DNA of 64,000 bases, from NCBI GenBank assembly GCA_039182515.1, contig JBCDCE010000012.1:47-64046 (forward strand), written 5' to 3'. A program made the translations under genes and the position numbers. Below are positions 3,520-54,808 of the stretch, piece by piece; the stretch's first letter is position 1; each line of letters opens with the position of its first letter. This DNA comes from Pseudomonadota bacterium (GTDB taxonomy: Bacteria; Pseudomonadota; Alphaproteobacteria; Rhodobacterales; Rhodobacteraceae). The notes under the pieces are model-generated. The model saw nothing but the letters and a program-made list of their open reading frames with translations, was not told where the DNA came from and ran no database searches.

Positions 3520-4500
3520 TTAAGTTTGGGTCGGGCCAGGGTGTGCCAAAAGGAAGGCATCCAGCCGTTCTTGATCAGGCATAGCAGGGGCGCACCCCGG
3601 TGTCATGACCGTGATGGACGCGCAGGCGGAGCCGCGCAAAACCGCTTTTTTCAATGCCATGCCCTCTGCCAGACCAGACATAAGCCCGGCCATGAAGGCG
3701 TCGCCTGCGCCCACAGGCTTAACGGCCTCCACGGGGTAAATCCCGGTGCGAATTTCTTCGCCCCCATGGAAGGTAATCGCGCCCTCTGCGCCCATTTTGT
3801 AGATCACAACAGCTGCACTTGTTTGGGACACCTCGCGCGCTTTATCGAGGCCATGGGCGTAGTCTCCGGCCATGAAACCAAATTCTTCATCGTTGCCCAC
3901 CACCATGTCGGAGGCCATGGCCGCTCGGGTCAGCGTTTTGCTGGCATCCTCAGAAGAGACCCATGAATAGGGGCGGTAATCCACGTCAAAAATAATCGGC
4001 AAACCAGCGGCTTTGGCCAGATCAAAGGCCCGGAAGGTCGCGGCGCGAGAGGGCTCAGCGGCAAAGACCGTGCCCGCCGTGATGAGCGCGCCAAACCGCG
4101 CATAATCCACGGCCTCAACATCCCCAACGCCCATCTGAAAGTCCGCTGCATGGTTGCGATAAATGACATTGCGATGGCCTTCGAGGACGCTTTCATACAC
4201 GGCCAAAGAGTTGCGATATTCGCCACCCACTTTGCGGATGTAATCGGTCTCAACGCCGTAATGTTGCAATCGGTTGATGCAGTAGCTGCCAATGGAATCA
4301 TCCGACACACAGGTCACCAAAGAAGCATTGCCGCCAAACTTGCAGATGCCCGCGCCGATATTGGCGGAGCTGCCGCCCAGATCCACATTGGCGCGTTCCA
4401 TATGCTCGATGGAGACATCGGGGTCGGTGAAGAAATCGATGCCTGCGCGCCCCACGATGATGAACCTGTTTTTGGCAATGCCCTCAAAGAGATCAGCCAT
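3520..4500 (-). CDS. iolC: PfkB-family carbohydrate kinase, 5-dehydro-2-deoxygluconokinase
   Basis: 326 aa with the PfkB signature KPVGAGDAFMAGL. Its start abuts the iolD stop (4501). Confidence 0.85.
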   Translation of the reverse strand: MADLFEGIAKNRFIIVGRAGIDFFTDPDVSIEHMERANVDLGGSSANIGAGICKFGGNASLVTCVSDDSIGSYCINRLQHYGVETDYIRKVGGEYRNSLAVYESVLEGHRNVIYRNHAADFQMGVGDVEAVDYARFGALITAGTVFAAEPSRAATFRAFDLAKAAGLPIIFDVDYRPYSWVSSEDASKTLTRAAMASDMVVGNDEEFGFMAGDYAHGLDKAREVSQTSAAVVIYKMGAEGAITFHGGEEIRTGIYPVEAVKPVGAGDAFMAGLMSGLAEGMALKKAVLRGSACASITVMTPGCAPAMPDQERLDAFLLAHPGPTQT

Positions 4501-6360
4501 TCACACGCCTTTCCGCTGCTTGGACCGCGTGCTTTCCCAGTCCTTATGGGCGGCGCGCACGTCGTCTTTGTCCGTGATATGAGGCGTTCCGACCTCCCAC
4601 CAGGTGTGGCCTTCAGTGGTCCAGCCCTCATAGGCATCGACCTTCATGGAGATCACATAGGTGCGATCAGAGCCTTGAGCGCGTTTGAAGGCCTCTGCCA
4701 AATCAGAGGCGTGTTCGACCGTTTCGGCCTTAGCGCCAAGGCTGCGCGCATGGGCTTCAAAATCCACCCCCACTTGGCGCGTGGCCGTAGGCGTGTCGGC
4801 AAAGAGGTTGTTGAAGCTTTCTTGGCCGACGTTGTTTTGCAGCTTGTTGATGACCGCAAACCCACCGTTGTCGAGCACCAGAATGATCAGCTTTTTCTCT
4901 GTTAAAACCGACGAATAGATGTCTGAGTTCAAAAGCAGGTACGATCCGTCACCGGTAAACACAATCGTGTCGCGATCCGGTTCCATCTGGCTCTGCGCAA
5001 TACGCGCGCCCCAGCCGCCTGCGATTTCATAGCCCATGCAGGAAAAGCCGAACTCCACATCAACCGTGCCTAGCCCCCGCGTTTTCCAGTTGGCCGTGAC
5101 TTCCGCGGGCAAGCCGCCTGCCGCGGCGACAACGCGGTCGCGTGGGTTACAAAGGTCATTCACAATGCCAATGGCTTGGGCATACGACGACGGGCGGTTC
5201 CCCACACGCGTGTTCTCCGCCACGTAGGCATTCCATTTAGCACGCTCGGCCTGCGCCTTTTCTGTCCAGGCCTCTGGCGCACTGAAGCCAGATTGCGCAA
5301 GCAGCGGCAGCGTAAGCTTACAATCGCCCACTACGGTCATGGACAAGTGCTTTGCCGCGTCGTGGCGGCCCACATTGAGGCCAATGATTTTGGCGTCTGA
5401 GGCAAAGGCCGTCCAAGAGCCGGTTGTGAAGTCTTGAAGCCGCGTGCCAACAGCTAAGATCACATCTGCTTTCTCGGCAATCGCATTGGCGCTGTCTGAT
5501 CCTGTGACCCCGATAGGACCAATGTTCAAAGGATGATCGTTCAAAAGATTGGCGCGGCCTGCGATGGTTTCGACCACTGGGATGCCCGTTTTTTCCGCCA
5601 AGTCTGTGAGCTCTTGGACAGAACCGCCATATTGCACACCGCCGCCCGCGATGATCATCGGCCGCTTGGCGATTTTGAGAAGGGCGATCGCCGCTTCGAC
5701 CTCCCGCGCATCTGGCGCTTGGCTGCGCACATGGTGCACACGCTTGTCAAAAAAGCTGACGGGGTAGTCGTAGGTCCAGCCCTGCACATCTTGGGGCAAA
5801 GCGATAAAGGCAGGGCCGCAATCTGCAGGGTCCATCATGGTGTTCAGCGCTGCGGGGAGCGACTGAATGACCTGAGCCGGATGCGTGATCCGATCCCAAA
5901 AGCGCGACACAGTTTGAAAGCCATCGTTGAGCCCCAAAGCAGGATTGCCAAAATGCTCAAGTTGTTGAAGCACTGGGTCTGGGAGCCGTGTGAGAAAGGC
6001 GTCTCCGCAGAGCATCAACATTGGCAAGCGATTGGCATGGGCAAGCGCTGCAGCCGTGTAGAGATTTGCTGTGCCAGGGCCAGCAGAGGCGGTGCAGAAC
6101 ATGAAGCGTTTGCGCAGCCAAGCTTTTGCGTAGCCCGCCGCGGCGAAGCCCATGCTTTGCTCGTTTTGACCGCGATAGAGCGGCAGCGTGTCTTTCACAT
6201 CTTGCAGCGCTTCGCCCAAACAGGTGACGTTGCCGTGGCCAAAAATCCCAAAGCCACCGCCGCAGAGACGATGTTCGGTTCCGTCAATTTCGATCCATTG
6301 CGCATCAAGAAATCGCACAATGGCCTGCGCCGTGGTTAGCGTGACCGTCTCATGTGACAA
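4501..6360 (-). CDS. iolD: ThDP-dependent 3D-(3,5/4)-trihydroxycyclohexane-1,2-dione acylhydrolase
   Basis: ThDP motif GDGSYLLLNSD and acetolactate-synthase-like architecture. The track start at 6546 would run through the divergent promoter. A TTG at 6360 (LSHETVTLTTAQAIVRFL) is preceded by GGGAGGAG and gives about 620 aa. Confidence 0.85.
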   Translation of the reverse strand: MSHETVTLTTAQAIVRFLDAQWIEIDGTEHRLCGGGFGIFGHGNVTCLGEALQDVKDTLPLYRGQNEQSMGFAAAGYAKAWLRKRFMFCTASAGPGTANLYTAAALAHANRLPMLMLCGDAFLTRLPDPVLQQLEHFGNPALGLNDGFQTVSRFWDRITHPAQVIQSLPAALNTMMDPADCGPAFIALPQDVQGWTYDYPVSFFDKRVHHVRSQAPDAREVEAAIALLKIAKRPMIIAGGGVQYGGSVQELTDLAEKTGIPVVETIAGRANLLNDHPLNIGPIGVTGSDSANAIAEKADVILAVGTRLQDFTTGSWTAFASDAKIIGLNVGRHDAAKHLSMTVVGDCKLTLPLLAQSGFSAPEAWTEKAQAERAKWNAYVAENTRVGNRPSSYAQAIGIVNDLCNPRDRVVAAAGGLPAEVTANWKTRGLGTVDVEFGFSCMGYEIAGGWGARIAQSQMEPDRDTIVFTGDGSYLLLNSDIYSSVLTEKKLIILVLDNGGFAVINKLQNNVGQESFNNLFADTPTATRQVGVDFEAHARSLGAKAETVEHASDLAEAFKRAQGSDRTYVISMKVDAYEGWTTEGHTWWEVGTPHITDKDDVRAAHKDWESTRSKQRKGV

Positions 6361-6442
6361 AGTCTGTGTCTCCTCCCAAAGAACGCAAGCGCCCCAAACA
6401 TTTTGCCTGTTGACGGCTTCGTCAAAACCGAAGATACGGGTT

Positions 6443-6458
6443 TTGCAACCGGTTGCAA
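6443..6458. promoter_or_regulatory. Perfect 16-bp palindrome TTGCAACCGGTTGCAA, a LacI-family-type operator in the divergent iolD / oxidoreductase promoter region
   Basis: The core TGcAAcCGgTTgCA fits the generic LacI-family operator pattern TGnAAnCGnTTnCA. A second near-identical copy lies at 14836..14850. Confidence 0.7.
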
Positions 6459-6492
6459 GAATAAAGATGAACTGGGGCCTTGGGAGGAACAC

Positions 6493-7596
6493 ATGGCAAA
6501 GATCGGCATCGGCATTGTCGGCGGTGGCTACATGGGCAAAGCCCATTCCGTTGCCTTTGCGGCGGTGGGAAGCGTGTTTGAAACCTCGCTGCGCCCGCGC
6601 TTAGAGATGATCTGCGCCTCCTCGCCTGCATCCGCTGAGAGCTACCGCGCGAAGTTTGGCTTTGCGCGGGCCACGTCCGATTGGAAAGCGCTCGTGGAGG
6701 ACCCGAAGGTCGAGGCCGTGATCATTGCAACGCCCCAAAAGTTTCACCGCGAGATTGCCGTCGCAGCTTTTGCTTTGGCCAAGCCCGTTTTCTGTGAAAA
6801 GCCCCTTGGGGCCTCTCTTGAAGACAGCCGCGCGATGGTGAACGCCGCACAAGCCTCAGGTGCTGTGAACATGGTTGGCTTCAACTATGTGCGCACGCCC
6901 GCCACGCAGTTTGCGCGTCAGCTGATTGCAGAGGGTCGCTTAGGCCAGATCACCTATTTTCGCGGTGAGCATACGGAAGACTTTTTCGCTGATCCCGACG
7001 CCCCGGCTACCTGGCGCAGTTTTGGGCGGGCAAACGGCTGCATGGGGGATCTTGCGCCTCACCCCATCAATCTCGCACATGCTTTGATGGGGCCAATCGC
7101 TGAACTAAACGCCGTGATTGAAACCGTTTATCCCACGCGCGGCGGTGAGCCCGTTGACAACGACGATGCCGCCCAAATGATGCTGCGCTTTGAAAGCGGC
7201 GTGCAGGGCCATCTGATGGTCAGCCGAACCGCCACAGGGCGCAAAATGGGCTATGCCTATGAGGTGCATGGCTCCAAAGGCGCGCTCAGGTTTGACCAAG
7301 AAGATCAAAACGCCTTGCATCTCTATCTGCGTGAAGGGCCTGAGGCCGAGCAGGGCTTCCGCAAGATCCTCACAGGCCCCGCACATCCCGATTACGCCCC
7401 TTTCTGCCAAGGCCCCGGGCATGGCACGGGCTACCAAGATCAAATCATCATCGAAGCCCATGATTTCATCAAAGCCATCGAGGCCGGTCAAGCCCTGTGG
7501 CCCACGTTTGAAGAAGGCATGGCTGTGAACCAAGTTGTGGAAGCGGCATTTGCCAGCCACGACCAACGCGCCTGGGTGCGCGTCAAAGACTTCTAA
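6493..7596 (+). CDS. Gfo/Idh/MocA-family NAD(P)-dependent oxidoreductase, candidate inositol 2-dehydrogenase
   Basis: Trimmed to the ATG at 6493, preceded by GGGAGGAA. Has the N-terminal Rossmann motif MAKIGIGIVGGGYMGKAH and the EKP motif (FCEKPL). Confidence 0.8.
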   Translation: MAKIGIGIVGGGYMGKAHSVAFAAVGSVFETSLRPRLEMICASSPASAESYRAKFGFARATSDWKALVEDPKVEAVIIATPQKFHREIAVAAFALAKPVFCEKPLGASLEDSRAMVNAAQASGAVNMVGFNYVRTPATQFARQLIAEGRLGQITYFRGEHTEDFFADPDAPATWRSFGRANGCMGDLAPHPINLAHALMGPIAELNAVIETVYPTRGGEPVDNDDAAQMMLRFESGVQGHLMVSRTATGRKMGYAYEVHGSKGALRFDQEDQNALHLYLREGPEAEQGFRKILTGPAHPDYAPFCQGPGHGTGYQDQIIIEAHDFIKAIEAGQALWPTFEEGMAVNQVVEAAFASHDQRAWVRVKDF

Positions 7597-34213: not shown

Positions 34214-35293
34214 ATGTATGAAATGACCTTTAAGACCTTGCTGACCGGCACCGTTATGGCGCTTGGCCTAGCGACAGCCGCTGTGGCTCAAGACAAAACC
34301 AAAGTTGGGTTCATCTATGTCGGCTCGATCGGCGATGGCGGCTGGAACTATGAGCATAACCAAGGCCGCTTGGCTGTCGAAGACGCTTTGGGCGATGCGG
34401 TTGAGACCACCTACATTGAGCGGGTACCAGAAGGGGCCGACGCTGAGCGCGTCATGACGCAAATGGCTCTGTCAGGCCATGATCTGATCTTCACGACATC
34501 TTTTGGCTACATGGATCCGACAATCAACGTTGCTGCGAAATTTCCAAACGTGAAATTCGAGCATGCAACCGGCTACAAACGGGCAGACAACGTCTCCACC
34601 TACTCTGCGCGCTTCTATGAAGGCCGGGCTGTGATCGGGCATGTTGCTGGCAAGATGACCAAAACCAACAAGGTCGGCTACATCGCCAGCTTCCCGATTC
34701 CTGAAGTGATCCGTGGCATCAACGCGGCCTATCTTCATGCGGCACGTGTGAACCCGGACGTCGAATTCAACGTGATCTGGGTCTACACCTGGGAAGATCC
34801 CGCGAAAGAGGCAGACGCTGCGAAAGCTCTGATTGACCAGGGTGCAGATGTGATCATGCAGCACACAGATACTACAGCGCCTATGCTTGTGGCTGAAGAA
34901 GCGGGCGTAATGGCGTTTGGTCAAGCTTCGGACATGTCTGCGTCAGGCCCAACTGCGCATTTGACGTCTATCATTGATGACTGGGCGCCCTACTATATCG
35001 CGCGCACAAAAGCGGTCATGGATGGCACTTGGACAAGCATCGACACTTGGGACGGTATCGAGCCTGGGATGGTTGCATTTGCTGAATTTTCCTCACAGAT
35101 CCCAGCAGATGTTGTGGCTGAGGCAAAGCAAATGATCGAAGACATTTCGAGCGGCGCTTACTACCCGTTTACCGGTCCTATCAACAAACAAGACGGTTCC
35201 GTGTGGCTAAAAGATGGCGAAATTGCGGACGATGGCACGCTTGCAACCATGGATTTCTACATTGAAGGCGTGACTGGCGATATTCCTAACTAA
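34214..35293 (+). CDS. BMP-family (basic membrane protein) ABC transporter substrate-binding protein
   Basis: Signal peptide ...LLTGTVMALGLATAAVAQ and BMP/PnrA-like layout (GFIYVGSIGDGGWN). Confidence 0.85.
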   Translation: MYEMTFKTLLTGTVMALGLATAAVAQDKTKVGFIYVGSIGDGGWNYEHNQGRLAVEDALGDAVETTYIERVPEGADAERVMTQMALSGHDLIFTTSFGYMDPTINVAAKFPNVKFEHATGYKRADNVSTYSARFYEGRAVIGHVAGKMTKTNKVGYIASFPIPEVIRGINAAYLHAARVNPDVEFNVIWVYTWEDPAKEADAAKALIDQGADVIMQHTDTTAPMLVAEEAGVMAFGQASDMSASGPTAHLTSIIDDWAPYYIARTKAVMDGTWTSIDTWDGIEPGMVAFAEFSSQIPADVVAEAKQMIEDISSGAYYPFTGPINKQDGSVWLKDGEIADDGTLATMDFYIEGVTGDIPN

Positions 35294-35336
35294 AGCACAA
35301 AGCCTTCACTAAAAGGTTAACAAAAATGAACGATTT

Positions 35337-35368
35337 GGCCCGGGATTTCCCGGGCCTTTTGTCTTTTT
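35337..35368 (+). terminator. Rho-independent terminator after the BMP gene
   Basis: 8-bp GC stem GGCCCGGG / CCCGGGCC with a 4-nt loop, followed by TTTTGTCTTTTT. Confidence 0.75.
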
Positions 35369-35637
35369 GATCATCTTTTGATAAGTTTCGTCTCGAACGG
35401 TTAAGAATCACTCGATTTTTTTGCCAAAAAATATGGTGGCGTTAACCATCCCGTTAACAAATAGTTAGCGGGAAACCAAAAACTGTGGCCGAAATTTGAC
35501 CTAAATGTGGTGTTTCCGCTACACACAAACCACAACTACTAGTTGCATCGCCACATTCCGAACAAATTCTTTGACTCAAACCCGCGCCAGGGCAATCGCT
35601 GTAATGTCAATACACATCTTACTTTCGGAGCCTGACC

Positions 35638-36171
35638 ATGACTGCCATCACAAAACGCCTCGATGTCGCGAACAAAGCACCAGCTTTTAAGACTGACTTC
35701 GCTCACGTTTCACCTGCTGCGGGTGTTGAAGTAGCGAACAAAGCGCCATCGTTCCGGACAGACTTTGCAAACAAAGCACCTGCCTTCGCAAACGACGTTG
35801 AAATTGCAAACAAAGCACCGTCTTTCTCCGTAGACGTCGCCAACAAAGCACCAGCCTTCCGCGTCGATGTGGCGAATAAAGCGCCTGCGTTCGACGTAGA
35901 AGTTGCAAACAAAGCGCCAGCCTTCCGCGTCGATGTGGCAAACAAAGCACCTGCGTTCGACGTAGAAGTTGCAAACAAAGCACCAGCGTTCCGCGTCGAC
36001 GTGGCAAACAAAGCGCCTGCTTTCGACGTAGAAGTTGCAAACAAGGCACCAGCCTTCCGCGTCGATGTGGCAAATAAAGCGCCTGCTTTCGATGTCGAAA
36101 TCGCTAACAAAGCGCCATCCTTTCGTGTAGAAGTTGCAAATAAAGCGCCTGCTTTTGATATCGCAGCCTGA
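35638..36171 (+). CDS. Tandem-repeat protein of 177 aa with 14 copies of ANKAP[AS]F; candidate multi-core precursor peptide
   Basis: ATG preceded by GGAG 7 nt upstream. The protein reads MTAITKRLD-(VANKAPAFKTDF)-AHVSPAAGVE-(VANKAPSFRTDF)(ANKAPAFANDVE)(IANKAPSFSVD)-[VANKAPAFRVD VANKAPAFDVE]x4-(IANKAPSFRVE)(VANKAPAFDIAA). Copies differ at synonymous positions only in this frame. No signal peptide and no Cys. Confidence 0.7.
   Translation: MTAITKRLDVANKAPAFKTDFAHVSPAAGVEVANKAPSFRTDFANKAPAFANDVEIANKAPSFSVDVANKAPAFRVDVANKAPAFDVEVANKAPAFRVDVANKAPAFDVEVANKAPAFRVDVANKAPAFDVEVANKAPAFRVDVANKAPAFDVEIANKAPSFRVEVANKAPAFDIAA
35836..36099 (+). repeat. Four near-identical 66-bp (22-codon) tandem units inside the repeat gene
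   Basis: The unit GTCGCCAACAAAGCACCAGCCTTCCGCGTCGAT GTGGCGAATAAAGCGCCTGCGTTCGACGTAGAA is repeated 4 times. Third-position changes include GCA/GCG, CCA/CCT, GCC/GCG/GCT, AAC/AAT, AAA/AAG and GAT/GAC. Confidence 0.9.
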
Positions 36172-36188
36172 TAAGGACAAACTCCAAC

Positions 36189-36983
36189 GTGAAGGACGAT
36201 AAATCCCTTCAACCTGAGTTTAGCGTCCCAGATTCTGGGGCGCTTGCTCGTTTTTATCGCTGGGTTCCAAGTGCAAGCCAGCCCGTTCCCGCGGATGCCT
36301 CTGCAGGAGGTACACTTCCGATGCGTGCGTTTCGCTACTGCGAACCCATTCGGACAGCCTCACAGATGGGCTGGTATGTGTTCCCGCCAATGGATTTCTC
36401 GTTGATTTGGGACGGGACGCGCATCAATTGGACCTGCGAAGGAGCGCCGGGATGGATGGATCTCGACAGCGCGCAATTCCCTGAATTCCCAGAACATTTT
36501 AATGCTCATGCCCCAGAAGGCATAGAAGGGTACTCTCCGCCTTTCCTAGCCTCGACCCTTGCGCAAGGTGTCTTGCAGGTTTGGTCCGGCATCGTCGCTC
36601 GTACGGCACCTGGATGGTGTTTACTGGTGCGAAACCCTGCCAATATCCCGCGTGTCCACCACGCTGAAGGCTTCGAAGGAATCGTTGAAACCGACCGCTG
36701 GTTTGGCCCACTTTTTACCAATTTACGCCTCACAAAGACCGATACTCGGGTCGATTTCCGCCGTGATCATCCCCTATTCCAAATCCAACTGATCCATAGA
36801 TCTATGCTCGACAATAAGTTGTCGCAGCGGATGGAAAAGGTTGCTGGACTGGATGAAATGACGGTAGAAGACTGGGAAGATTATCGCGCCACGATTGTGG
36901 AGCGTGTTGGTGCCAAGCGAGTGCCCGGCGATTATGCTAAGACCTCGCGAAAAATGAGGAAACGGGATGACAGTCAGGCTTAG
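36189..36983 (+). CDS. Hypothetical protein with no family recognisable by eye; candidate partner or modifying enzyme of the repeat peptide
   Basis: 264 aa from the GTG at 36189, 17 nt after the repeat-gene stop. An alternative ATG at 36321 (MRAFRYCEPIRTASQMGWYVFPP) is preceded by a strong AGGAGG. No TM segment or signal peptide. The basic C-terminal tail is KTSRKMRKRDDSQA. Confidence 0.65.
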   Translation: MKDDKSLQPEFSVPDSGALARFYRWVPSASQPVPADASAGGTLPMRAFRYCEPIRTASQMGWYVFPPMDFSLIWDGTRINWTCEGAPGWMDLDSAQFPEFPEHFNAHAPEGIEGYSPPFLASTLAQGVLQVWSGIVARTAPGWCLLVRNPANIPRVHHAEGFEGIVETDRWFGPLFTNLRLTKTDTRVDFRRDHPLFQIQLIHRSMLDNKLSQRMEKVAGLDEMTVEDWEDYRATIVERVGAKRVPGDYAKTSRKMRKRDDSQA

Positions 36984-38133
36984 AGGACTGCCAGCTTTTG
37001 GCATGGTGCTCGTAAGTACGGCTTACGTTGTCGAGATATCGACATTTCCTCTTATTCTTCCCGCACTCGCAGAGTCGCTCAACATACTCGTGCAGTCCTC
37101 CCAGGCGCGCATGCTTGTCGCCTTTTATAAAATTGCGCTTGTTATCTCGCTTTTGTTTGGTGGATGGCTTGGTGATCGGCTCGGAAAAGAAGTTATTTTT
37201 ACCGTTGGAACGGCCATTTTCTGCCTCGCAAGCTTTGCACTTTTGCTGAGCCCAAATGCGGAAGCAGCATTGATTGCGCGCGCTCTACAAGGTTTTGGTG
37301 CCGGGCTGTTTTCGCCTATGGTGCCAGCGCTTTTGAGTGCACATAGTCCACAAAACCCAGTGCGTGCCCTTGCGAGATGGGGGCTGGTTACCGGCATCGC
37401 CGCAGCGACTTACCCAATCTTTGCGGAACAGTTAATTCGACTGTTTGGCTGGTCTGGTGGATGGGTCGTAATTCCCTTGGTCGCAGGCCTCTCCCTGTTT
37501 GGCCTTCCCCGCACAAAAGATGTTAAAGACCCACCAGAGCCGGCTAAAATACACACGTCGTTACGCGATATCAGCATCCCCGTATGGGCCATATTGGCTT
37601 ATGTTTTTCTTAATTACGGGATCACCACCTGGTTCATTTACGCCATGGCGATCAACATGCCAGCGGGCACAGGCATGTATAATATTGGTCTCTTGATGGC
37701 TGTGCTCTGGGGCACCTTTAGCATCAGCAACATCGCAGTTGAGAAGCTGTGGAACGGTTGGGCTTCTGGCGCCCGGCTTTTGGTTGCCGGAGCACTTTTG
37801 AACACGACGGGTGTTTGGATCTTTGGTGCTTTTGGCGTCCAGCCCATTTGCTGTGTTTTGGCCGCTTTGTTGATTGGCATGGGGATGGCGTTGAACAACG
37901 TACCGACCACTGAAATGGCTTTCGAGCTGTCCGACCGCACCATGCATGGCCGCGTCGCCTCGCTAGATATCGTGGCCGCGCGCTTGGGTGGCGCTGTGTT
38001 TGTGGTCTGGATCCCAATTGTTGGCTGGGAAGGCGTCATTGCAAACACATGGGCAGCGTTGATCTCTTTGATGATGGTGGCCTACGCCGCGAGCCAACAT
38101 GCTACCTACCATCAGGCTTCCCAACGCGCTTAA
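36967..38133 (+). CDS. MFS transporter (12-TM, exporter-like)
   Basis: 388 aa with MFS motif A GGWLGDRLGKE. Its ATG overlaps the upstream gene by 17 nt. Confidence 0.85.
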   Translation: MTVRLRGLPAFGMVLVSTAYVVEISTFPLILPALAESLNILVQSSQARMLVAFYKIALVISLLFGGWLGDRLGKEVIFTVGTAIFCLASFALLLSPNAEAALIARALQGFGAGLFSPMVPALLSAHSPQNPVRALARWGLVTGIAAATYPIFAEQLIRLFGWSGGWVVIPLVAGLSLFGLPRTKDVKDPPEPAKIHTSLRDISIPVWAILAYVFLNYGITTWFIYAMAINMPAGTGMYNIGLLMAVLWGTFSISNIAVEKLWNGWASGARLLVAGALLNTTGVWIFGAFGVQPICCVLAALLIGMGMALNNVPTTEMAFELSDRTMHGRVASLDIVAARLGGAVFVVWIPIVGWEGVIANTWAALISLMMVAYAASQHATYHQASQRA

Positions 38134-38153
38134 GCTGTGGCAGGCCTCAGGGC

Positions 38154-39086
38154 ATGACAGCACTTAGAACACTTTCGGGATCAACGCCCAAACCCTATAT
38201 CTTCGGCACCATGCAATGGGGCGACAGAGCCGATGAAGCCGCGTCGCGCGCCATGTTTGAAGCATGCCAGGCAGCAGGCATCTGCCATTTTGATACGGCC
38301 CATGTTTATACAAACGGCAACTCCGAAACCCTGCTTGGCAAATTCGCGTCTTCTGAACGCGAGGCTCTCTATGTCGCCACGAAGGTTGCCTACACGGGGG
38401 GATCAGGGCGCGCAAATATCACGCGGTGCTTCGACACAAGCCGCCAGCGGCTCAATATGGATGTGGTTGATCTGCTCTATTTGCATCGGTTCGACGATCA
38501 AACCCCACTTGCCGAGACCTTTGAGACCTTGGCTGATTTACAATCCAAGGGGCTGATCCGGCACATCGGCGTCTCAAACTTTGCCGCCTGGCAGGTCGTG
38601 AAGGCCCAGGGTGTTGCCGCAAGCTTCGGAACCCGTATTGATGTCATCCAACCGATGTACAGCCTTGTGAAGCGCCAAGCAGAAGTGGAAATTCTGCCCA
38701 TGGCGCATGACCTTGGGCTCGTCGCAGCAACCTATTCACCTTTGGGTGGAGGCTTGCTCACTGGCAAATACGTAAAAGGAGCCACAGGCCGCCTGACAGA
38801 AGACACACGCTATGCCGCGCGCTACGGGCAAACCTGGATGCACAGCACAGCGGAAACCCTTGCAGATTTGGCGCACACCGAAGGCGTCTCTCCTGCCACC
38901 CTAGCGGTGGCCTGGGTCGCGAAACATAAGTTGGCTCCACAGCCAATCCTCTCAGCACGCTCAGTAGATCAGCTTCAGGCTTCGCTGGAGGCCGTTCCAT
39001 TTGAGATGTCTGATTCCCTATACGCGCAGATCACCTCGCTTTCGATTGCGCCAGCTCCTGCCACAGACCGGCTCGAAGAGGCATGA
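38154..39086 (+). CDS. Aldo/keto reductase
   Basis: Trimmed to the ATG at 38154 (MTALRTLSGSTPKPYIFGTMQWG...DTAHVYTNGNSE). Starts 20 nt after the MFS stop. Confidence 0.85.
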   Translation: MTALRTLSGSTPKPYIFGTMQWGDRADEAASRAMFEACQAAGICHFDTAHVYTNGNSETLLGKFASSEREALYVATKVAYTGGSGRANITRCFDTSRQRLNMDVVDLLYLHRFDDQTPLAETFETLADLQSKGLIRHIGVSNFAAWQVVKAQGVAASFGTRIDVIQPMYSLVKRQAEVEILPMAHDLGLVAATYSPLGGGLLTGKYVKGATGRLTEDTRYAARYGQTWMHSTAETLADLAHTEGVSPATLAVAWVAKHKLAPQPILSARSVDQLQASLEAVPFEMSDSLYAQITSLSIAPAPATDRLEEA

Positions 39087-40162
39087 CACCGCGCGTCGCA
39101 ATCATCGGCGGCGGCATTGCCGGTGTCTCAGCCGCCGCTAAACTCGCCTCCCTGGCCCATGTCACGCTCTATGAGGCCGAGCCAACGCTCAGCTACCATG
39201 CAACAGGCCGGTCTGCGGCGATGTTTTTGGTGGGTTACGGCAATGAGGTTGTTCGCGCGCTCAACCAAGCCAGCGAAGCTGAATTGATCGCGCGTGAGGT
39301 TCTTTCCCCCAAAGGTGTGTTGATGTTGGAGCGCGCAACCGACCATGCTCAGTTTTTGGCAGAAAGCGGCGCTATGGGTCTGCCAGAGATTTCAATTTCC
39401 GAAGCCCAAAGCCTCCTTCCAATCTTAAACGTGGAGAGTGTTGCAAACGCCGCCTACAGCGCCGACGCCACAGCCATTGATACCGACGCTCTTGTGCAAT
39501 CCTATCTGCGCCAAGCACGCAACTTGGGTGCTGTGATCAAGCCTTCGAGCCCGGTTAAGACCCTGACCAAAACGGCAGCCGGATGGGACGTGGTCACCAA
39601 AGAGAGCCGAGATCCGTTCGATTACGTGGTCAACGCGGCCGGCGCTTGGGCGGACCAGATCGCAGAACGCGCGGGCCTAACACCGCTTGGTATAACACCT
39701 TACAGGCGCTCCATGGCTCAACTGCCCTTACCGGAAGGCGCAGAAAACCCAGCGGCTTGGCCCTTCACAATCGCTGCTGGAGAGCGTTGGTACGCGAAAA
39801 TCGTCGCTGGCAAATGGTGGGTCTCGCCTTCCGAAGAAGACCCAAGCGCACCGGTAGACGCCTTTGCCGATGATATGGTCATCGCAGAAGGCCTCGCGCG
39901 CTACGAAGACATGACAACCCAGCCCGTGACACGCGTGGAGCGGGTCTGGGCGGGCTTACGCAGTTTTGCACCCGACCGCGCGTTGGTTTTGGGACCAGAC
40001 CCAAAAGAGCCGAGCTTTCTATGGTGCGCGGGCCAAGGTGGATATGGTTTCCAAACCGCGCCTGCCGCCTCAGATTTTCTGGCGGCCCAGATCTCAAAAT
40101 CTCCCTCACCACTGCCAACTGAAACTATACGCGCACTGAGCCCTAGTCGCTTCACATCGTAG
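39083..40162 (+). CDS. FAD-dependent oxidoreductase (DAO family)
   Basis: MTPRVAIIGGGIAGVSAAAKL dinucleotide-binding motif. ATGA overlap with the AKR stop. Confidence 0.85.
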   Translation: MTPRVAIIGGGIAGVSAAAKLASLAHVTLYEAEPTLSYHATGRSAAMFLVGYGNEVVRALNQASEAELIAREVLSPKGVLMLERATDHAQFLAESGAMGLPEISISEAQSLLPILNVESVANAAYSADATAIDTDALVQSYLRQARNLGAVIKPSSPVKTLTKTAAGWDVVTKESRDPFDYVVNAAGAWADQIAERAGLTPLGITPYRRSMAQLPLPEGAENPAAWPFTIAAGERWYAKIVAGKWWVSPSEEDPSAPVDAFADDMVIAEGLARYEDMTTQPVTRVERVWAGLRSFAPDRALVLGPDPKEPSFLWCAGQGGYGFQTAPAASDFLAAQISKSPSPLPTETIRALSPSRFTS

Positions 40163-54340: not shown

Positions 54341-54808
54341 TCACTGACCTGTCGAGCCAAAACCACCCGCCCCGCGTGTGGTCTCGTTTAAAGCCTCATG
54401 CACTTCGAACTTAGCTTGCACGACAGGTGCAAGCACCATCTGCGCAATCCGCATGCCATGGGTCACCACAAACGGCTCTTGGCTTAAATTCATCACGAGG
54501 ACCCCCACCTCGCCGCGGTAGTCTGCGTCGATCGTGCCAGGAGAATTAGGTAGGGTAATACCGTTTTTCAGAGCCAAGCCCGAGCGTGGACGTATCTGAA
54601 CTTCAAAGCCGTGGGGGATCTCAAACCGCAAGCCCGTGGGTACAAGAGCGCGAGCGCCAGGGGCGAGGGTCACACCACTTTCTCGTTCGGCTTGCTGGAA
54701 ATTTGCTTTCAAATCGGCACCAGCGGCTTGCTCTGTTTCATAATGCGGCAGACCAAGCGTTTGGTCTGCACTTTCTACCCATTGTACCTTCAGCGATGTC
54801 ACGCTCAT
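54341..54808 (-). CDS. dut: dUTP diphosphatase
   Basis: 155 aa with ..AAGADL.., ..RSGLALK.., ..[10 protein letters not shown].. motifs. Confidence 0.9.

Follow-up and report, generated by a model that had tools for sequence, protein, structure and literature searches.

A tandem-decapeptide gene family paired with DUF6065 in Alphaproteobacteria: candidate leaderless multi-core peptide precursors

Several classes of peptides synthesized on the ribosome and then modified post-translationally (RiPPs) are made from multi-core precursors, in which one ribosomal product carries many near-identical short cores; cyanobactins (PatE-type precursors), dikaritins (UstA), multi-core graspetides and microviridins are examples. 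Each core has its own flanking recognition sequence in place of a single long leader, the copy number varies, and the precursor gene stands first in a small operon beside a processing gene. Microcin C (MccA/MccB/MccC) and pantocin A (PaaP/PaaA/PaaB/PaaC) combine a tiny precursor with one or two cytoplasmic enzymes, and their small RiPP-derived products are exported by the major facilitator superfamily (MFS) pumps MccC and PaaC. Here we describe a locus that is like both groups in these respects. It lies in a 64,000-nucleotide stretch of contig JBCDCE010000012.1 (hereafter the window), part of a metagenome-assembled genome (MAG) from the Rhodobacteraceae (GCA_039182515.1), and consists of a gene of 14 tandem decapeptide modules followed by genes for a DUF6065 protein and an MFS transporter. 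It represents a widespread, unannotated two-gene module, which is a three-gene module in the clade with a Lys in each core (the Lys or ANK type). The reading that we favor, with a probability of roughly 0.45, is that DUF6065 processes the repeat protein as a multi-core precursor without a leader and that the MFS transporter exports the product. The operon has the following features (positions are those of the window).

35627..35630, + strand: Shine-Dalgarno-like GGAG, 7 nt 5' of the repeat-gene ATG; aligned relatives show an equivalent GGAG
35638..36171, + strand: repeat gene, 177 aa (18.6 kDa) from an ATG start; N terminus of 9 residues, then 14 modules of a decapeptide with core ANKAP[AS]F; C-terminal tail DIAA
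35668..36156, + strand: array of 14 ANKAP[AS]F-coding 21-mers, from pattern matches and codon variation
36189..36983, + strand: DUF6065 protein, 264 aa, GTG start 17 nt past the repeat-gene stop; PF19541 with E = 2e-19; MEM8978772.1
36967..38133, + strand: MFS transporter of drug:H+ antiporter type (EmrB/Bcr/MdtL-like), 388 aa, 12 transmembrane segments; MFS_1 with E = 1e-29; candidate exporter

At the level of sequence, codon variation in the array shows that the repeat open reading frame (ORF) is a real gene, translated and held under purifying selection for its peptide. The back-translated ANKAP[AS]F pattern GCNAAYAARGCNCCNKCNTTY matches 14 times, always on the + strand and within 35668..36156, and never in 100 dinucleotide-preserving shuffles, which confirms the count given in an earlier note made from the letters of this DNA alone. 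Tandem Repeats Finder describes the array with a period of 33 nt (10.7 copies) or 66 nt (5.3 copies, 86% matches, score 483). In the protein, the 22-aa super-repeat VANKAPAFRVD-VANKAPAFDVE occurs four times, as previously reported, and is followed by IANKAPSFRVE and VANKAPAFDIAA. Among the 14 cores the ANKAP and F codons differ only at third positions and only synonymously (GCA/GCG/GCC/GCT, AAC/AAT, AAA/AAG, GCA/GCG, CCA/CCT/CCG, TTC/TTT). The sole amino-acid polymorphism is A/S at core position 6, where the first codon position differs; the earlier statement that all variation is silent thus holds for the ANKAP and F codons but fails for this one. All three reverse frames are open across the array, and residues in the reverse-strand ORFs differ between units (e.g., TSKAGALF versus TSNAGALF), as had been noticed. 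Translation in the plus frame with selection on the peptide, also proposed earlier, agrees with the core codon variation and with the counts from 65 loci given below.

The repeat protein has no Cys, no signal peptide, no N-terminal hydrophobic segment and, again as first described, one Pro per unit, to which we add one in the first long linker. Its linkers are KTDFAHVSPAAGVEV, RTDF, ANDVEI, SVDV, RVDV, DVEV, DVEI and RVEV. The conserved unit is the decapeptide V-[DE]-V-A-N-K-A-P-[AS]-F, which leaves one linker residue in the regular part; the repeats themselves stand, but the heptapeptide unit and the linker list of the earlier description are superseded. The window comes from a MAG, and the exact copy number of the 33/66-nt array could be mis-assembled. 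On an independent metagenome contig, with a DUF6065 protein 88% identical, the upstream ORF ends in the same compact form (...ANKAPAFRVDVANKAPAFKTAA, stop). The exact repeat-ORF product is missing from a collection of 15 billion proteins; DUF6065 and the MFS transporter of the same MAG are annotated (MEM8978772.1 and MEM8978773.1). Tryptic peptides diagnostic for the repeat proteins are SPAFSTDCEDAGR and VHIANK, and for the window protein APAFR, VDVANK and APAFDVEVANK.

The family was reached only via the neighboring gene: the 80 best genome loci (alphaproteobacterial) were fetched via DUF6065 alone, for which there are 2133 homologous protein clusters and, in GTDB species genomes, 558 or more confirmed loci. 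The repeat ORFs share the core V-x-[LIV]-[GA]-[GNA]-X-[SA]-P-x-[FL], and the logo of 247 distinct units reads D-[AS]-G-K-V-R-L-G-[GAN]-X-[SA]-P-x-[LF], in which V and P each reach 98% and the G/A position 99%. Residue X varies by clade (M in 40% of units, F in 19%, K in 15%, otherwise C, L, Q, Y, V or I). Copies per ORF range from 1 to at least 24 (median 5), at a spacing of 10-26 aa, and the linkers are variable, poorly conserved and rich in Asp, Thr, Ala and Pro. Single-core ORFs exist (e.g., Muricoccus MTKLPVPVRTTPASVADAGRVHLGGFQKSY, stop); in Reyranellaceae cores may abut (period 10) and the first core begins 3 residues after Met; and the stop codon of many family ORFs directly follows the last core residue. 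These features make the decapeptide an autonomous unit. Because the D-x-G-K lead-in of relatives (VHIANKSPAFSTDCEDAGR; Pseudaestuariivita, Nereida, Algirhabdus) is lost in the window protein, the latter is the most compact, contracted member of the family.

Core codons at 65 loci have variable sites at first, second and third positions in the ratio 102:49:422, and 516 synonymous stand against 108 non-synonymous codon variants; the cores were chosen by peptide pattern, which gives these counts some ascertainment bias. That bias notwithstanding, the codon pattern clearly argues for a family that is translated and constrained as a peptide. Sneathiella, a 'Candidatus Odyssella' MAG and many further alphaproteobacterial genomes have kept this peptide frame, and the core is shared across orders despite different linkers and nucleotide sequences. 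An orthologue is annotated as a RefSeq coding sequence (hypothetical protein WP_260111214.1, Rhizobium sp. SRDI969 plasmid), and the gene is also called in Nereida and Pseudaestuariivita. The earlier note had held that divergent repeats in relatives, with no conserved neighbors, would speak against its proposal; repeat number and linkers do differ among relatives, but core and neighbors are conserved.

Protein databases recover the repeat family poorly. A homology search with the window ORF yielded one true relative only, and an exhaustive phmmer search gave 249 matches, of which the top-ranked, on inspection, were unrelated long 11-mer repeat proteins; a motif filter among the 150 matches listed found no ANK-type protein. 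Searching the 15-billion-protein collection with a VRLGG-type repeat protein returned nothing, Pfam and NCBIfam scans of repeat proteins gave sub-threshold noise only, and a metagenome scan added just one short locus. No description of DUF6065, of the repeat proteins or of their pairing was found in Pfam, NCBIfam, PADLOC or the open literature; subscription-only sources were not covered and a prior description is possible. The tandem-decapeptide family is large and apparently undescribed.

The C termini of the repeat proteins differ among clades. ANK-type proteins (window, L004, L005, L007, L009, L022, L089, L091) have a short tail ending in Ala-Ala (DIAA, VKAA, VEAA, KLAA, DEAA, KIAA), which resembles the C-terminal AA of ssrA-type ClpXP degrons. 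Outside the ANK type the proteins end exactly at a core or in [PA][PA]AR. The module was also seen on contigs in non-alphaproteobacterial MAGs, namely L017 and L027 (Solirubrobacterales), L070 (Pirellulaceae), L073 (Pseudomonas marincola MAG) and L033 (Burkholderiales MAG; aberrant core VQVGGIIKKLP), reflecting either mis-binning or horizontal transfer of the two-gene cassette.

The partnership with DUF6065 is nearly universal at the loci fetched. At 77 of the 80 the core pattern matched in an ORF ending within a few hundred bases 5' of the DUF6065 gene, on the same strand. Two of these matches are false (L050 and L055, M20-type peptidase); L066 is partly masked and visibly repetitive, and L061 and L062 have at most one degenerate copy. 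A genuine repeat ORF is present in about 75 of the 80 loci, with two or more copies in 72. A neighbor-joining tree of 81 DUF6065 proteins groups them by core type (ANK, GNM, MGGMSPLF, MGDM, LGAC, LGGMAP, LGGMSP and a mixed LGAF/LGGF/LGGY group that also has C and M variants). X differs even between closely related DUF6065 enzymes (F/Y/C/M), and V1, G/A4 and P8 are 98-99% conserved. DUF6065 residue 93 (about 36465..36467) is Asp in 90% of Lys-type clade members and K, H, Q or R in other clades; Asp93 is a possible charge partner of the core Lys, a correlation that is confounded by phylogeny and on which we do not rely.

The stretch that separates the repeat gene from DUF6065 contains a GC-rich hairpin in most non-ANK loci (mean folding z -2.1 over 27 loci), with a 9-11 bp stem and a loop of 4-5 nt (e.g., CGGACCGGGCAGCAATGTCCGGTCCG), 45-75 nt past the repeat stop (L043, about 3910-3935; L071; L047; L016). 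The window, with its 17-nt gap, has no such hairpin. A hairpin after the first gene is an arrangement that usually gives an excess of first-gene product, and this one looks like a partial terminator or stabilizer, with more repeat protein relative to DUF6065 as its expected effect. A search of the fetched loci for a third universal partner gene found none. Clade-level synteny includes a same-strand gene for a TldD/PmbA-family metallopeptidase directly 5' of the repeat gene (at 32 of the 80 loci, e.g., L013, 1388..2827, + strand; soil Acetobacteraceae/Rhodospirillales-like clades), a PAS histidine kinase (27 loci), a tetratricopeptide-repeat protein (26) and, just downstream, a secreted SGNH/non-GDSL lipase/hydrolase (18). 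TldD/E processes microcin B17; the adjacency of TldD to the repeat gene, which may be functional or plain synteny, is suggestive only. In Mesorhizobium, Rhizobium, Sneathiella and a Paracoccaceae MAG the neighbors are unrelated to each other.

An MFS gene stands directly 3' of DUF6065 in all 14 Lys-type loci with downstream DNA (9 genome loci, the ERR12944167 contig and four metagenome or isolate contigs), as it does in the window and on the Rhizobium sp. SRDI969 plasmid, and follows DUF6065 in none of the 71 non-ANK loci. In the window its first 17 nt lie within the end of the DUF6065 gene, and its weak subfamily matches are all drug:H+ antiporter-type efflux pumps. The adjacency check proposed in the earlier note therefore came out in its favor, with same-core homologs directly 5' of the homologs of 36189..36983 in every related locus examined and, in the ANK loci, the MFS gene next (14/14). 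Three points go beyond that note: the downstream gene encodes a DUF6065 protein that accompanies the repeats almost everywhere, the ANK type is only a small part of the family, and a transporter is missing from most clades.

The DUF6065 protein has no signal peptide and a basic C-terminal tail. Across 37 homologs 42 residues are invariant, including R46, R49, C51, E52, R148, N152, E163, E167 and D169, and there is no invariant His; R46, R49, C51 and E52 sit in the motif R-A-F-R-Y-C-E-P, and E163, E167 and D169 in E-G-I-I-E-T-D-R-W-F-G-P-L. An AlphaFold2 (AF2) model (predicted local distance difference test score, pLDDT, 84.8; predicted template-modeling score, pTM, 0.75) is mostly beta, with the R-Y-C-E-P segment in a lower-confidence loop. 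Foldseek against the PDB returned trimeric dUTPases as all of its top 50 matches (best E = 3.3e-4, target-normalized TM-score 0.6-0.78, approximately 10% identity); as modeled, the fold of DUF6065 is dUTPase-like. An hmmsearch of DUF6065 against PDB sequences and an hhalign comparison with Escherichia coli Dut found nothing, and a permissive local hhalign comparison with three Dut sequences reached P = 0.02 at a probability of 2%. In the register of this permissive alignment the Arg of motif II corresponds to R148, the I-D-x-D of motif III to E167/D169, the Gln of motif IV to Q200 and the arm of motif V to R244/G247/Y249, with motif I unmatched. DUF6065 may possess a nucleotide-type active site. 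PADLOC, with its models of anti-phage defense, matched none of the three operon proteins. The window also carries a canonical dUTPase gene:

54344..54751, - strand: canonical trimeric-type dut gene; its product shares 46% identity with E. coli Dut along 137 aa and contains the motif GGFGSTG

DUF6065 is therefore not the housekeeping dUTPase.

We favor a multi-core precursor because a first-in-operon gene of short conserved cores, with drifting copy number and a variable X, lies beside an enzyme-like partner and, in one clade, a pump. The repeat gene and DUF6065, with the MFS gene in the Lys-type clade, would be co-transcribed, and each decapeptide would serve cytoplasmic DUF6065 as an autonomous recognition and processing unit. 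One translation product could thereby give many copies of one small peptide-derived product, of which the clade-specific residue X (Lys in the window) would be the variable 'payload'. Release from the polyprotein may be carried out by DUF6065 itself or by housekeeping peptidases, and export of the product, in the Lys-type clade, would fall to the co-transcribed MFS efflux pump. We infer that DUF6065 acts on the repeats and that these are consumed as a small product is released and exported. Because the conserved core residues have no obvious reactive side chain, the chemistry, if any, points to backbone chemistry or cleavage. A bolder proposal, which we regard as rather doubtful, is a new alphaproteobacterial class of ribosomal peptides, made from leaderless strings of up to 24 or more cores by a dUTPase-fold protein as sole maturase with nucleotide-type chemistry (backbone cleavage or nucleotidylation beside X), with the Lys-type product pumped out by the MFS transporter. 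Neither such a fold nor such a reaction logic is known from the maturation of peptides.

Several points weigh against a precursor. Pfam and NCBIfam scans of the window operon and related loci found no known RiPP enzyme, RiPP recognition element (RRE), leader or dedicated protease, in keeping with the earlier observation that no known maturation enzyme family is encoded nearby. No obvious nucleophile is present among the conserved core residues (V, L/I, G/A, A/S, P, L/F), and the chemical heterogeneity of X makes it hard to propose a common side-chain chemistry. We know of no precedent for a dUTPase-fold peptide-modifying enzyme, and the link between DUF6065 and dUTPases is not significant at the sequence level. 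That DUF6065 tracks core type would also be expected from co-inheritance of adjacent genes. The regular beta-strand pattern in the AF2 model of the window protein, which has moderate confidence, fits a folded repeat protein equally well. Because no transporter is linked in 71 of the 80 loci, the family as a whole may act inside the cell, which weakens a 'secreted peptide' reading. Lastly, remote DUF6065 members (26-27% identity) have no repeat gene:

L084 (Sinorhizobium medicae pMl1), 5384..6597: remote DUF6065, keeps the motifs Y-R-C-x-P, W-D-G and G-[VL]-[IV]-E-T-D
L086 (Niveispirillum), 5956..6690: remote DUF6065, keeps the same motifs

The partnership therefore marks a large subfamily and not all of PF19541. 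In S. medicae the upstream overlapping gene encodes a 169-aa non-repetitive hypothetical protein, beside an amidohydrolase.

The repeat protein might not be consumed at all, and act as a multivalent ligand: a disordered 'sticker-spacer' chain that scaffolds, sequesters or regulates a (probably oligomeric) DUF6065, which would really act on a nucleotide or on some other small molecule. Analogs of such an arrangement are Stl with phage dUTPases and, with Rubisco, CsoS2 or EPYC1. A conserved short motif in variable low-complexity linkers at variable copy number would suit it, as would the strict gene pair, which in most clades comes with neither transporter nor protease, the basic C-terminal tail of DUF6065 facing acidic linkers, and the dUTPase-like fold, canonical dUTPases being trimeric. 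We nevertheless consider it unlikely: members with one or two cores would be unable to cross-link, the locking of the MFS gene to the Lys-type clade is left unexplained, the hairpin that follows the first gene suggests that repeat protein greatly outnumbers DUF6065, and the variability of X within one enzyme clade is more like that of a payload than of a contact.

Distinctly improbable, in our estimate, is a folded beta-solenoid, beta-roll-like or amyloid-like structural protein for which DUF6065 would be an accessory, chaperone or modifying factor. A single-sequence AF2 model of the window protein does place a strand every 11 residues (AFRVDV / AFDVEV) with ANKAP loops (pLDDT 71-78 over the regular part, pTM 0.63), and the Foldseek neighbors of this model are all beta-helices, but none is significant (E >= 0.75), and single-sequence AF2 commonly makes regular sheets from idealized repeats. 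The super-repeat alternates RVD and DVE, which are complementary in charge, and units of 17-20 aa with two Gly/Pro turns resemble known solenoid coils; a coil of 17-22 residues with two short strands and two turns, formed by ANKAP + ANKAP in the window and by LGGxAP + DAGK elsewhere, would be the equally improbable concrete form. Members with 1-3 units, a spacing of 10-26 aa, poorly conserved Ala/Pro/Thr/Asp-rich linkers, the lack of a signal peptide or secretion system and the absence of Pfam matches to RTX, LEA or other repeat families all speak against such a fold. Finally, the array could be no gene but a recently expanded non-coding minisatellite, open in several frames by chance. The three open reverse frames would fit this, as would the missing database entry for a product whose two neighbors are annotated and the almost empty returns of searches seeded with repeat proteins. 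We give it next to no chance, and the codon-position pattern effectively refutes it: ANKAP and F codons vary only synonymously, at third positions of this frame, the same core recurs across orders despite different linkers and nucleotide sequences, the start codon has its GGAG and lies in a gene tightly spaced to the next, and relatives are called as genes in RefSeq (WP_260111214.1), Nereida and Pseudaestuariivita.

Two elements were identified in the DNA upstream of the operon:

35337..35356, + strand: GC-rich hairpin and T-run, with an 8 bp stem, all G-C, then TTTTGTCTTT; likely terminator
35533..35545, no strand assigned: inverted repeat CAACT-ACT-AGTTG, then a TTGAC box; promoter region, possible operator

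The hairpin likely ends an upstream nucleoside-type ATP-binding cassette (ABC) transporter operon, whose Bmp/PnrA-family gene ends at 35293, and forms the 5' boundary of the repeat-gene transcription unit. The pattern ACAAC-N5-GTTG is kept at the equivalent place 5' of the repeat ORF in the window, Nereida sp. MMG025 and Pseudaestuariivita rosea (L004 and L005 equivalents); as three Rhodobacterales sequences only, these offer a weak lead to an operator for some regulator. An Rfam scan upstream of the repeat gene (E <= 1) for riboswitches or small RNAs gave a chance match only, and a sigma-70 promoter scan of the same region found none. The ABC transporter was rejected as part of the system, given the terminator between and synteny in the closest relatives only (4 of 80 fetched loci). 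The aldo/keto reductase and flavin adenine dinucleotide (FAD) oxidoreductase genes 3' of the MFS gene were also rejected; they are not conserved partners. As listed, the aldo/keto reductase ORF (38049..39086, + strand) overlaps the end of the MFS gene by 85 nt; its Pfam domain starts at residue 51, and the true start is probably the Met at about 38154. The FAD oxidoreductase gene follows at 39083..40162.

Should the precursor reading hold, hundreds of alphaproteobacterial species would possess, in a two-gene cassette, an unrecognized route to small peptide products, with a maturase fold not known to be linked to peptide chemistry and a residue X that is naturally 'programmable' between clades. 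It would also give a function to a Pfam DUF and expose a class of repeat genes that homology searches barely recover. Carriers of DUF6065 include many Acetobacteraceae from soil and culturable Rhizobium, Mesorhizobium, Sneathiella and Nereida. Among the cultivable strains are Rhizobium sp. SRDI969 (plasmid pSRDI969_1, N2A41_RS26360-26350), R. leguminosarum bv. trifolii CC278f, Nereida ignava CECT 5292, Pseudaestuariivita rosea H15 and, as a type without the MFS gene, Sneathiella chinensis LMG 23452. Should the precursor idea fail, it would still call for an explanation that a tandem decapeptide protein and a dUTPase-fold protein are paired almost universally.

Other repeat and fold families are more distant comparisons. 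The predicted beta-barrel of DUF6065 superposes on members of the trimeric dUTPase/dCTP deaminase superfamily, and the model of the 36189..36983 product has the dUTPase-like (jelly-roll or beta-clip) barrel; unlike those proteins, DUF6065 is twice the size, only approximately 10% identical and without a recognizable motif I, and it has an extra invariant R-x-x-R-Y-C-E-P segment (the low-confidence loop). CsoS2 of carboxysomes and EPYC1 of pyrenoids likewise combine tandem short binding motifs, flexible spacers and variable copy number, but they have no sequence relationship to the repeat proteins, which include single-copy members, have a partner that is not known to be an abundant enzyme, and have no organelle genes nearby. 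A late embryogenesis abundant (LEA) group 3 or apolipoprotein-like 11-mer helix was rejected, with no LEA match (E <= 0.1), one Pro per unit and AF2 strands in place of helices, as was a repeats-in-toxin (RTX) beta-roll, with no HemolysinCabind match (E <= 0.1) and no GGxGxD nonapeptide in the sequence.

Of four RiPP hallmarks tested, the locus has one, a short translated precursor under peptide-level selection (GGAG start, synonymous variation, core across orders). The co-localized, enzyme-like DUF6065, a direct neighbor at about 75 of the 80 loci, falls outside the known RiPP enzyme families; no leader, follower or recognition sequence was found, only 9 residues preceding the first core in the window and 3 in Reyranellaceae; and a Pfam scan of the window genes found no RRE/PqqD-like domain. 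The intra-unit conserved positions (D-x-G-K before the core, in other clades) are the sole candidates that could serve as recognition sequences. Multi-core RiPP systems differ in having PatA/PatG subtilisin-like proteases, YcaO, ATP-grasp, DUF3328/UstYa or tyrosinase proteins, none of which is encoded in the window operon, where the partner is DUF6065 with its dUTPase-like fold; the repeat proteins themselves have no signal peptide, no Kex2-type dibasic sites and no leader (some members have fewer than 5 residues there). The RiPP-like precursor of the earlier note thus survives in part, through the family, its core, its partner and the ANK-clade MFS, but the analogs that it named do not. Cyanobactins were rejected, as Pfam scans of the window genes (34214..40162) and of related-locus neighbors found no S8 protease or cyanobactin domains in the operon, and dikaritins on account of the bacterial source and the absence of a signal peptide, KR sites and DUF3328.

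As for microcin C and pantocin A, a very small peptide-derivative product would be expected here. If DUF6065 uses nucleotides, its chemistry could parallel the peptidyl-nucleotide of microcin C. MccA ends in Asn and the ANK core has an invariant Asn, a likeness that is a lead only and is limited by the Gly or Ala that replaces Asn in most clades of the repeat family. Unlike the single 7- or 30-residue peptides of those systems, the precursor here would be a polyprotein with as many as 24 cores or more; an E1-like (ThiF/MoeB) enzyme is absent, and the MFS transporter is confined to the Lys-type clade. By analogy, the locus is most like a multi-core RiPP locus, with a minimal gene set like those of microcin C and pantocin A.

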